The notes beneath the pieces are model-generated. The model saw only the letters and a program-made list of their open reading frames with translations. It ran no database searches and was not told where the DNA came from. Positions 364 to 35,400 of a stretch of DNA of 64,000 nt are shown piece after piece. The DNA is from Escherichia coli (lineage in GTDB: Bacteria > Pseudomonadota > Gammaproteobacteria > Enterobacterales > Enterobacteriaceae). The stretch's first letter is position 1; each line of letters begins with the position of its first letter. The stretch is taken from assembly GCF_029227855.1 (NCBI RefSeq), contig NZ_CP074356.1; one strand, written 5' to 3'. The position numbers and the translations under genes are program-made.

Positions 364-1305
364 TCAGAACAGATTATCAATGTTCATGCTGTAGGTTTTG
401 CTCACCTTGTCGCTTATCGATTTCATCTGCTGAATCATGTTGGTGAGTTTGCGGGCATAGTGAGGATCGGTGGCATAGCCCGCGTCCTGTAGGGCCTGCG
501 CCCCCTGCTCCGCACTCGCGGCGGTCGTCACGGCGGCGTAGCGCGGGTTACGCGTTAACAGCCCAACGTAATCCGACAATGCTTCCAGATACGAGCTGTA
601 GACCCGAAACTTCGCTTTTACTTTCTTCGCTTCGCCATTTTCATATTCAGTCGTGGTGATTTCAGTGACTGGCCCTTTCCAGTTGCCAGAGGCTTTGACG
701 CCAAACAGGTTATAGCTCGGCTCGCCGTTTTCACGGCGGATTTGCCGTTGTCCCCAGCCAGATTCCAGCGCCGCCTGAGCGAGGATCAAATGATGTGGCA
801 CACCACTTTGCTGGCTTGCCAGTTGGGCTGGCAGCGAGAGTTGCGCGAGGAATGCTTTACTGTCACCCGGCAGCGAATCATCGTAGTTACGTGGTACGGC
901 CTTTTGCACCAGCTGCGAAAGCGTCTGATTTTGATAACGCACCACGGTTTCGAGCGGGAATTTCATCGGTGCTGCTGGCGTGGACTCCTCTGGCAATGGT
1001 TGTTCTGGCGTCATCTGTTTAACCATCATCTCTGCCAGCCCCAGACCTTTGCCCGCCGTCATCTGTTGGGCAATCTGCTGGTCATACATACTGGTATACA
1101 GGCGAGTGTGCTCGCTGCTGAACAGGCCATCTTTTGGTAAAGCGTCGCGCATGCTTTTCAACATCATCTGCACGAACATCCCTTCCACCTGGCGGGCCAC
1201 CGGACGGATATTTGCCGCCGGATCTTCGCCCGTTTTCGCCTTAAGTTCGTTGAGCGATTGTGCATCCCAGGCCGCACTTGCCAGTAGTTTGCTGTCGCTG
1301 ATCAT
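364..1305 (-). CDS. flgJ: Flagellar rod-assembly protein and peptidoglycan hydrolase FlgJ
   Basis: ORF 364..1335; start placed at internal Met giving [22 protein letters not shown] (313 aa); ATG overlaps the flgI stop by 1 nt. Confidence 0.92.
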   Translation of the reverse strand: MISDSKLLASAAWDAQSLNELKAKTGEDPAANIRPVARQVEGMFVQMMLKSMRDALPKDGLFSSEHTRLYTSMYDQQIAQQMTAGKGLGLAEMMVKQMTPEQPLPEESTPAAPMKFPLETVVRYQNQTLSQLVQKAVPRNYDDSLPGDSKAFLAQLSLPAQLASQQSGVPHHLILAQAALESGWGQRQIRRENGEPSYNLFGVKASGNWKGPVTEITTTEYENGEAKKVKAKFRVYSSYLEALSDYVGLLTRNPRYAAVTTAASAEQGAQALQDAGYATDPHYARKLTNMIQQMKSISDKVSKTYSMNIDNLF

Positions 1306-33296: not shown

Positions 33297-33680
<384 letters not shown>

Positions 33681-33692
33681 ATTCTTCTCCCG

Positions 33693-34403
33693 AATAAATA
33701 TCCTCCGGCATAGCCGGAGGTTTTTCAAATGCGCCTATAAGGCTCTCTTACCAGCCGCGCCCTAACAGGCGCACACGATCTGACATTTGCATCCAACTTC
33801 GTTACTTACGGCCCGTAAACGGGCTGCCCGGATAGGGAATCGATAACTGCTCTCCCATTTTATCCTCTTCAAGCTGGTGCTTTATGTAATCCTGTATCTT
33901 CGCCGTGTTCTTACCCACCGTATCGACGTAGTACCCTCTGCACCAGAACTCCCTGTTCCTGTATTTGAATTTCAAATCACCAAACTGCTCGTAAAGCATC
34001 AGACTGCTTTTCCCTTTCAGATATCCCATAAAGCCGGATACGCTCATTTTGGGCGGGATCTCCACAAGCATATGGATATGATCTGCACAGCATTCAGCTT
34101 CCAGAATCCGTACACTTTTCCACTCACACAGCTTTCTCAAAATACTGCCTATTGCTCTACGCTTCTCTCTGTAGAACACCTGTCTTCGGTATTTTGGCGC
34201 AAAAACTATGTGATATTTACAGTTCCATCGGGTGTGCGCTAAGCTCTTTTCGTTCCCCATTGGGACCCCCTTTTGATTTCTTGTTTGACACTTGCAGTTG
34301 CCAGACCGCAAGGTGTTTTAACAAATCAAAAGGGGTTTTAATAACTGGCTTAAAGCTGAAAGCTTTCCGGAACCCCCAGCCTAGCTGGGGGTTTTCTGTG
34401 CAC
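33693..34403 (-). mobile_element. IS200-type insertion sequence (IS200/IS605 family), about 0.7 kb, between the csgA terminator and the csgC RBS
   Basis: Y1/HUH transposase ORF flanked by subterminal hairpins (CCCCCAGC-TA-GCTGGGGG at 34372..34391; CCTCCGGC-ATA-GCCGGAGG at 33702..33720); the csgA-csgC spacer is about 770 bp here against a few tens of bp remembered for K-12. Boundaries are approximate. Confidence 0.8.
33802..34260 (-). CDS. tnpA: IS200 transposase TnpA (Y1 HUH single-strand transposase)
   Basis: ORF 33802..34311; start placed at MGNEKSLAHTRWNCKYHIVFAPKYRR (152 aa); HIHMLV HUH motif. Confidence 0.9.
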   Translation of the reverse strand: MGNEKSLAHTRWNCKYHIVFAPKYRRQVFYREKRRAIGSILRKLCEWKSVRILEAECCADHIHMLVEIPPKMSVSGFMGYLKGKSSLMLYEQFGDLKFKYRNREFWCRGYYVDTVGKNTAKIQDYIKHQLEEDKMGEQLSIPYPGSPFTGRK

Positions 34404-34429
34404 AAAAAAAACAGGGCTTGCGCCCTGTT
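34404..34429 (-). terminator. Rho-independent terminator of csgBA
   Basis: Reverse strand AACAGGGC-GCAA-GCCCTGTT followed by TTTTTTTT, 20 nt after the csgA stop. Confidence 0.85.
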
Positions 34430-34448
34430 TCTTTAATACAGATGTGAA

Positions 34449-34904
34449 TTAGTACTGATGAGCGGTCGCGTTGTTACCAAAGCCAACCTGAGTGACGTTA
34501 ACGCTGGAGTTAGATGCAGTCTGGTCAACAGCAGCACCGTTACCGCCACCGAACTGTTTAACAGTCATAGTAGAATCTTTACCATTCCACTGATCAAGAG
34601 TAGCGCTGTTGCCGAAACCACGCTGAGTCAGATCGATTGAGCTGTCATCAGAACCTTGGCCAACATCTGCGCCGTTACCGCCGCCGTGCTGGGTAATGGT
34701 CAGATCAGAGTTACGGGCGTCAGCTTGCAGAGCAAGTGCAGAGTTACCGCCACCGTACTGGTAAATGTTCAGCTCTGAATTTGGGCCGCTATTATTACCG
34801 CCACCACCGTGGTTACCGCCGCCGCCGTACTGAGGAACAACACCTGCCAGAGCGCTACCGGAGAATACGATTGCTGCAATTGCTGCTACTTTTAAAAGTT
34901 TCAT
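34449..34904 (-). CDS. csgA: Major curlin subunit CsgA
   Basis: 151 aa ORF, MKLLKVAAIAAIVFSGSALAGVVPQYGGGGNHGGGGNNSGPNSEL with imperfect S-x5-Q-x-G-x-G-N-x-A repeats. Confidence 0.96.
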   Translation of the reverse strand: MKLLKVAAIAAIVFSGSALAGVVPQYGGGGNHGGGGNNSGPNSELNIYQYGGGNSALALQADARNSDLTITQHGGGNGADVGQGSDDSSIDLTQRGFGNSATLDQWNGKDSTMTVKQFGGGNGAAVDQTASNSSVNVTQVGFGNNATAHQY

Positions 34905-34944: not shown

Positions 34945-35400
34945 TTAACGTTGTGTCACGCGAATTGCCATTTGCGACTGTCTCTGCACTACAATTGCCG
35001 TTTTTTGAGTACCATACTGTGTAATATTTGCTTTATTACCAGAACCTTTCTGGATAATCATCGCAGTATTACCATAAGCACCTTGCGAAATACTGGCATC
35101 GTTGGCACTGCCCGCCTGATCAATATATGCAAGGTTATAATCTCCTGTCTGATCAATCTTTGCCCGGTTGCTACTACCTTCTTGCGCAACAACCGCCAAA
35201 AGTTTTGAGCCTCCCTGCCGTAACTGAGCACTATTATTAGTCCCAGCTTGACCAATTATGGCTGCCTGATTAAATGAAGACTTACTCAATTCATTTACCG
35301 CGAAGTTATATTCTGAATTAGCTAAATCATAACCTGCTGCGGCTGCAATCCCAGGCGCACCCAGTATTGTTAACATCATAAATAACAATTTGTTTTTCAT
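34945..35400 (-). CDS. csgB: Minor curlin nucleator subunit CsgB
   Basis: ORF 34945..35427; start placed at MKNKLLFMMLTILGAPGIAAA (151 aa). Confidence 0.94.
   Translation of the reverse strand: MKNKLLFMMLTILGAPGIAAAAGYDLANSEYNFAVNELSKSSFNQAAIIGQAGTNNSAQLRQGGSKLLAVVAQEGSSNRAKIDQTGDYNLAYIDQAGSANDASISQGAYGNTAMIIQKGSGNKANITQYGTQKTAIVVQRQSQMAIRVTQR

Follow-up and report, generated by a model that had tools for sequence, protein, structure and literature searches.

How is csgC transcribed in a strain of Escherichia coli in which an insertion sequence separates it from the rest of its operon, and why does the insertion sequence lie there? In the 64,000-nucleotide stretch of E. coli DNA analyzed here (hereafter the window), an IS200C element of 711 bp is found between csgA and csgC, in the same orientation as csgBAC. 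Probably, though far from certainly, the element inserted behind the T-tract of the csgA terminator through its usual choice of target, and csgC is knocked down but not abolished.

All features discussed below lie on the minus strand. The first gene of csgBAC is csgB, which encodes the curli minor subunit (34945..35400; the gene list gives it as an ORF, and a csgB of 456 nt is annotated in co-linear RefSeq loci). It is followed by csgA for the major subunit (34449..34904), which is intact as an ORF, matches Pfam Curlin_rpt with E = 3.9e-28 and agrees with the RefSeq annotation of homologous loci. The third gene, csgC (33348..33680), encodes the 110-aa periplasmic inhibitor of CsgA amyloid formation and is likewise intact (Pfam Tafi-CsgC, E = 3.5e-54). 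The gene order csgB-csgA-csgC, the divergent orientation relative to csgDEFG and the family domains identify the locus as csgBAC, and it is co-linear with annotated E. coli loci.

Downstream of csgA lies its native intrinsic terminator (34404..34434), which is also the target of the IS200 insertion. Folding reveals a stem-loop CAGGGC-GCAA-GCCCTG (34427..34412), whose stem can be lengthened by A:U pairs, followed by a run of eight T (34411..34404). Our terminator scan missed this structure, which was verified by folding; the likely cause is that A:T pairs prolong the stem into the T-tract. The same terminator is present, unchanged, where the site is empty: in strain JNEC-KY178, the nearest relative of the window's flanks, whose site reads GCCCTG-T8-CGGGAGAAGAATATG, and in a published primer sequence of K-12 MC4100. 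In both, the T-tract stops 12 nt before the csgC ATG, so that a normal csgC mRNA carrying its ribosome-binding site must be a product of terminator read-through. The csgA terminator precedes csgC in every E. coli, so read-through is always needed. This fits the literature: co-transcription of csgC with csgBA has been reported, as have its induction by CsgD along with other CsgD targets and an extremely low level of the CsgC protein. CsgC is described as acting substoichiometrically, at 1:100 to 1:1000 relative to CsgA; redundant inhibitors (CsgI/YccT, YedX and Prc) are also reported, as is a csgG-deficient background that reveals csgC function.

The extent of the element was obtained by comparing filled and empty sites. 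It spans 33693..34403, from GTGCACAG (34403) to ATATTTATT (33693), with an uncertainty of about 2 nt from the T residues at both junctions. Removal of 711 bp turns the filled site into the empty one and leaves no target-site duplication behind; the two ends are not inverted repeats of each other, in keeping with the IS200 group of the IS200/IS605 family, which has no terminal inverted repeats. Its sole ORF is an intact tnpA (33802..34260) for a Y1 (HUH) transposase of 152 aa, which matches Pfam Y1_Tnp (PF01797; 130.7 bits, E = 3.8e-38) over profile positions 2-121 of 121. The region 5' of it (34270..34393) is a full-length match (1-124) to the Rfam family STnc490 (RF01405; 146.1 bits against a gathering score of 56, E = 4.7e-31) and has, by this match, the IS200-type combination of a terminator hairpin and a stem-loop sequestering the Shine-Dalgarno sequence. 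Subterminal hairpins, each with an 8-bp stem and a 3-nt loop, are found at both ends on the same (top) strand. RefSeq loci with identical IS DNA carry the label 'IS200/IS605-like element IS200C family transposase'. As an ordinary IS200C of the active type, the element belongs to the Y1/HUH family of single-strand 'peel-and-paste' elements. A left-end terminator, a structured 5'UTR and a weak promoter are textbook features of IS200. According to published work (PMC4513863), tnpA has an intrinsically weak promoter, from which transcription starts at about nt 40 of the element, and its translation is strongly repressed; the published start would fall near 34364 here. The transcript of tnpA has been published as nt 1-670, with its end at bp 710, where the element itself stops. 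Compared with the terminator of SgrS, the native one at the 3' end of IS200 has been called 'weaker'.

A transcript leaving csgA meets three hairpins before it reaches csgC. The first is the csgA terminator, with a stem of -10.9 kcal/mol for the core and -18.2 kcal/mol when extended, followed by U at 8 of 8 positions. Only 12 nt past its T-tract comes the left-end hairpin of the element, CCCCCAGC-TAG-GCTGGGGG (34391..34373), which flanking A:U pairs extend to 10 bp as AACCCCCAGC-TAG-GCTGGGGGTT (34371..34393). It has AAAA directly 5' of its 8-bp GC core and matches, by position (IS nt 12-34), the bidirectional terminator described in the literature; TnpA presumably binds this hairpin. Read inward, it folds with -15.4 (core) or -18.0 kcal/mol (extended), and U occupies 2 of the 8 positions of its tail, UUCCGGAA. 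The third is the right-end hairpin, CCTCCGGC-TAT-GCCGGAGG (33702..33720; -14.8 kcal/mol, flagged by the terminator scan on both strands), which is preceded by GAAAAA and followed by ATATTTATT (33701..33693); its tail as scored, AUAUUUAU, has U at 5 of 8 positions. It stands 21 nt ahead of the csgC ATG and forms the last barrier. Its counterpart in Mailhella (L104) preserves the hairpin through a compensatory change (CCACCGGC..GCCGGTGG). A long imperfect palindrome in the right end (33726..33776) appears in both the MFE and the centroid fold. The fold of the csgA terminator together with the left end has z = -5.6 and that of the right end z = -3.9; in neither case were any of 200 shuffled sequences equally stable. 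The 17-nt left-end hairpin has a chance expectation of 0.02 per window.

Judged as a GC-rich stem followed by a U-tract, the csgA structure is an intrinsic terminator, the right end is borderline and the left end, read inward, falls short; from its sequence alone the latter looks like a poor terminator for csgA-derived transcripts. Published work nevertheless describes it as a strong bidirectional intrinsic terminator that shields IS200 from outside transcription (PMC4513863; PMC5435999), and it is said to halt about 85% of upstream transcripts, a second-hand figure for Salmonella IS200 (PMC5435999). The initial annotation had placed the csgA terminator and the left-end palindrome in this stacked order on the minus strand and had read the palindrome as a barrier to read-through; both statements agree with our coordinates and with the documented terminator, within the reach of that second-hand figure. 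Its loop is the trinucleotide TAG, where TA had been given, and the count of two stacked hairpins holds for this pair and leaves out the terminator-like right-end hairpin (33720..33702), which makes three in the path. The csgC start had been put about 12 nt past the right end: the ATG occupies 33680..33678, 12 nt beyond the IS end at 33693, and the intervening leader CGGGAGAAGAAT (33681..33692), which contains the Shine-Dalgarno region, is native and the same as in empty sites.

We then turned to the position of the element, using a survey of 5426 complete E. coli genomes, 5407 of which match the query. An IS occupies the csgA/csgC site in seven of the 5426, each time in the same orientation, and a chimeric junction query for the opposite orientation at this site returned none in the 5426 genomes. 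With the window strain, the IS-bearing strains are N1131, MEW, EC16, AR_0137, 005008, AR_0114 and L6-21, from mixed hosts and sources (human, gull, waterfowl manure). csgC is intact and its leader unaltered in all eight IS-bearing sequences (seven genomes annotated as intact, and the window). These eight filled sites fall on four flank haplotypes that lie 12-57 positions per 2 kb apart. Two of the loci (L001 and L004) have no flank differences in 2 kb on each side, while their IS copies differ at 23 positions and the T-counts at their junctions are unequal. Conversely, the window's IS is identical to those of two other loci (L005 and L006) whose flanks are 55 and 44 positions off, and the window's own flanks differ from the empty-site strain JNEC-KY178 at only 2 and 0 positions. 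In a further locus (L007) the left side counts T7 and the right side gains one T, so that the junction is offset by 1 nt. Each insertion event is limited to 1-3 of the 5426 genomes, and no clade has expanded.

Because the haplotypes are divergent, equal flanks carry unlike IS copies, one junction is offset by 1 nt and a near-identical relative is empty, the simplest reading of these sequences would be that this T-tract was hit at least four times, always in one orientation, by separate insertions. The events may look more independent than they are if recombination, gene conversion among IS copies or slippage in the T-tract has intervened. A single ancestral insertion was considered and is unlikely, given the four flank haplotypes, the 23-nt IS divergence on equal flanks, the offset in L007 and the empty relative.

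Repeated use of one terminator suggests a look at IS200 targets in general. A search with the 17-nt left-end hairpin, in which each species was represented by one genome, gave 124 sites, from Yersinia pestis (IS1541), Vibrio, Brenneria, Pluralibacter, Mailhella, Desulfovibrio, Oxalobacter, Bacillota and others. A terminator was called where the last 8 nt of the flank contained at least 5 T and were preceded by a hairpin of -8 kcal/mol or better. By this measure the left end adjoins a hairpin with a T-tract in 84 of 93 unique flanks, against 5 of 362 control positions taken from the same loci 120-300 nt farther upstream. Of 79 cases, 63 have the insertion point 6-9 nt past the GC core of the host's hairpin. 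The host hairpins vary between copies inside one genome and therefore belong to the host and not to the element. Some IS copies directly follow the right end of a second one (Y. pestis L114, L115 and L117; Mailhella L104), which indicates that a hairpin with a T-rich tail is itself usable as a target. Insertion is thus orientation-specific and 3' of a short target, with the left end beside the target, both across the survey (84/93) and at csgA (seven against none). The stacking of a host terminator and the left-end hairpin is a signature of IS200 and not a local peculiarity; the hairpins are stacked at csgA because the IS200 group takes terminators as its target, a reason for the arrangement that the initial annotation had missed. 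The association could partly stem from the survival of harmless insertions rather than from target choice.

The arrangement of guide and target is compatible with what is known of related elements. IS608 and ISDra2 find their target through pairing with a short guide that lies 5' of the hairpin foot, and they prefer the lagging-strand template (PMC3333891). In the window, AAAA before the left-end hairpin stands opposite the TTTT of the target and GAAAAA before the right-end hairpin stands opposite the terminal TTATT; the former arrangement accords with that guide rule. On the plus strand, every one of the eight 8-kb bins shows negative GC skew, which gives the top strand of csgBAC and the IS the composition of a leading strand and makes it a lagging-strand template. 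By analogy, we infer that the AAAA guide may pair with the T-tract target, with the reservation that the surveyed elements were all picked by one hairpin sequence, so that guide and target hardly vary among them.

A wider proposal, which we put forward as possible rather than probable, is that the IS200 group recognizes whole intrinsic terminators as its integration site, that terminators across phyla serve as 'safe harbours' and that polar alleles result. If so, the terminator, with its A-rich 5' side, GC hairpin and T-rich tail of about 6-9 nt, would mimic the right end of the element, GAAAAA-hairpin-ATATTTATT. Natural polar alleles would then arise wherever a gene relies on terminator read-through, and the csgA/csgC junction would be a recurrent example that yields natural csgC knock-down strains.

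For csgC itself, the favored account runs as follows. IS200C entered just 3' of the T-tract of the csgA terminator, its left end beside the tract, which would be read on the lagging-strand template by the AAAA guide 5' of the left-end hairpin, as in the IS608/ISDra2 model; the target, a GC hairpin with a T-rich tail, would resemble the element's own right end. csgC is left intact and retains its ribosome-binding site. RNA started at the CsgD-dependent csgBA promoter would first encounter the csgA terminator, as it always has. Next would come the left-end terminator, about 85% efficient in Salmonella, then some 0.7 kb of poorly translated tnpA RNA that may invite Rho-dependent polarity, and finally the right-end hairpin. 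The csgC expression driven from csgBA is predicted to fall several-fold to about ten-fold without being abolished. A small constitutive share at best would come from the weak tnpA promoter, and no new promoter would be made. The size of the effect on csgC, and even its direction, is what we infer from these parts. Folding of the csgC start region gives mixed signals: with the IS the openness of the Shine-Dalgarno sequence is 0.73, against 0.29 without it, and that of the AUG 0.13 against 0.39, the start codon being more paired. Such a polar knock-down of csgC would probably be tolerated, because CsgC works at so small a ratio to CsgA.

A stronger effect would follow if the three barriers, together with Rho-dependent polarity on untranslated tnpA RNA, made csgC a functional null whose role is covered by other periplasmic factors. 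We regard this as unlikely. The barriers do multiply, from the 8 U of the csgA terminator through the second-hand figure of about 85% for the left end to the 5/8 U of the right end; the strong repression of tnpA translation would favor the action of Rho, and the redundant inhibitors named above could stand in. Against a null, csgC and its leader have remained intact in every IS-bearing sequence, and a small residual expression may do for a protein that is active at 1:100 to 1:1000. The restriction of each event to 1-3 of 5426 genomes is compatible with mild counter-selection, but recent insertion explains so shallow a distribution equally well.

That transcription from csgBA is fully blocked is rather improbable. 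csgC would then be expressed only through read-through from the tnpA promoter or from a promoter in the right end, and CsgC would become low, constitutive and uncoupled from CsgD; the initial annotation had argued that any csgC expression must come from these two sources. The left-end terminator is leaky, at about 85% and not 100% by the second-hand figure, and the csgA terminator must leak as well, since csgC is co-transcribed in the wild type and needed read-through before the IS arrived. In its favor, tnpA does have a weak promoter, starting at about nt 40, and the 3' terminator native to IS200 is called 'weaker'; yet transcripts from tnpA must cross the right-end hairpin, the promoter is weak and the reported tnpA transcript (nt 1-670) ends at bp 710 with the element. 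As for the right end, a relaxed scan yields one promoter-like match there, TTGAAA-17-GAGGAT (33700..33728), which would start transcription about 12-15 nt ahead of the ATG. It agrees with the consensus at 8 of 12 positions, a quality that chance alone accounts for, since the window has 6.1 such matches per kb per strand, and we dropped it as a promoter. At a stringency of 9/12 the standard scan finds none on the minus strand in the right end. The promoter prediction over 33681..33801 that had been proposed as a check, which we extended to the whole IS, likewise gave nothing in the right end above chance. The further insulation of csgC and the documented left-end barrier are what survives of the earlier reading; the element as sole source of csgC expression and a right-end promoter do not.

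Adaptive rewiring, in which a changed CsgC:CsgA ratio benefits biofilm formation or host interaction and the insertion was selected, is very improbable: the at least four apparently separate insertions at one site and in one orientation speak for it, but target preference alone predicts such recurrence (90% of IS200-group left ends are at terminators), only 7 of 5426 genomes carry the element, with no expanded clade, and their sources are heterogeneous (human, gull, waterfowl manure).

The preferred reading, target choice followed by a partial knock-down of csgC, is a new instance of known things, and neither of its two points overturns current understanding. The mobile-attenuator idea, the statistical association with terminators and the terminator, 5'UTR and promoter features of IS200 are already known. 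Our literature search found no report linking IS200 to csgA/csgC or the curli locus; the location at csgA/csgC, its recurrence and the reading as choice of a T-tract target appear to be unreported so far. The IS-bearing strains are natural variants in which CsgC is further insulated from the csgBA promoter, and set against near-identical strains whose site is empty (JNEC-KY178, for example), they would reveal both the real need for CsgC and the way in which csgC is transcribed. The survey also explains why IS200 is often harmless and silent: it lands past terminators, where no gene is disrupted and little transcription comes in.

Several known systems can be set beside this locus. With IS608 and ISDra2 it shares an insertion that respects strand and orientation and places the left end directly 3' of a short target, as well as AAAA 5' of the left-end hairpin against TTTT and a target strand of leading-strand composition. 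In those elements the target is 4-5 nt that pair with the guide, whereas the target of IS200 seems to be a whole terminator, GC hairpin and T-tract together. A preprint on IS200/IS605 elements reports that terminator-like sequences are enriched upstream of them, the same statistical tie of intrinsic terminators to the upstream side that we find. It interprets the enrichment as a niche that limits transposase expression, whereas the filled and empty sites and the repeated hits at csgA point to choice of the T-tract.

The locus also resembles the 'mobile attenuators' (Naville & Gautheret 2010, PMC2965389), in which the 3' terminator of an IS ahead of a host gene can attenuate it: 21 nt separate the right-end hairpin from the csgC ATG, and hairpin and gene are co-oriented on one strand. 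The published attenuators were drawn from conserved clusters and often lay beside decayed ISs, whereas the element in the window is intact and recent and its attenuation of csgC is a prediction. Finally, IS200 of Salmonella and E. coli, IS200C and IS1541 of Yersinia have in common a length of about 710 bp and a single Y1 transposase gene, a left-end hairpin terminator at nt 12-34, the STnc490 5'UTR stem-loop, a right-end hairpin and the lack of both inverted repeats and target duplication. From these known IS200 elements the one described here is itself no different, and only its location, between the csgA terminator and the csgC ribosome-binding site, is particular.

IS200C, the 711 bp element lying between csgA and csgC, has a right-end hairpin (33702..33720) that, in the plus-strand reading, runs into TTTTTCAA; this U-tract is better than the one found on the tnpA-sense strand. 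Judged by its sequence, the right end may therefore stop transcription that enters the element from the csgC side no less effectively than it terminates tnpA transcripts. On the other side of the element, the clear csgA terminator (34404..34434, minus strand) was missed by the consensus terminator scan, likely because pairing between its A-tract and T-tract lengthens the stem and uses up the T tail; the scan has a blind spot for such bidirectional-looking terminators. Elsewhere in the csg region, a full-length match to the Rfam ES056 sRNA (RF02752; 36009..36100, plus strand; 119.7 bits, E = 9.8e-23) is located in the csgD leader region, shortly 5' of the csgD start codon (36156).

Two other E. 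coli strains with IS200 between csgA and csgC carry further IS damage close by. In strain MEW an IS100 truncates clsC (locus L003, 5606..7652), and in strain L6-21 the csgF/csgG side is replaced by IS1B (locus L008, 1..694), so that curli export has probably already been lost in the latter strain.

Among the loci recovered by scanning one genome per species for the 17-nt left-end hairpin, IS200-group copies occur in tandem in Yersinia pestis NCTC5923 (L114, L115 and L117) and Mailhella massiliensis (L104). At the junction (..CCTCCGGCTATGCCGGAGGATATTTATT|GTGCCCAG..), one copy's right-end hairpin, with its T-rich tail, leads directly into the left end of another, and the Mailhella right-end hairpin has a compensatory change (CCACCGGC..GCCGGTGG). 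In Dickeya undicola (L088, around 700..716) a solo left-end hairpin without an adjoining transposase is flanked by TTTTTTGTCTATAGAAAAC and GTTTTCTATAGACAAAAAAA, which make it part of a long perfect palindrome; it may be what is left of an element, or else a miniature derivative. In the uncultured Ruminococcus sp. RUG14215 (L092-L102) the same 17-nt hairpin belongs to a different repeated element, where it lies at the opposite end, which resembles a right end, in the arrangement hairpin-GATGCTTATT|variable flank; this module is thus common to distinct elements and to both ends.

The left-end hairpin of IS200C is itself included in a match to Rfam STnc490 (34270..34393, minus strand). This match is in the tnpA sense, whereas the published sRNA, STnc490/art200, is described as antisense to the tnpA 5'UTR (Ellis et al. 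2015).
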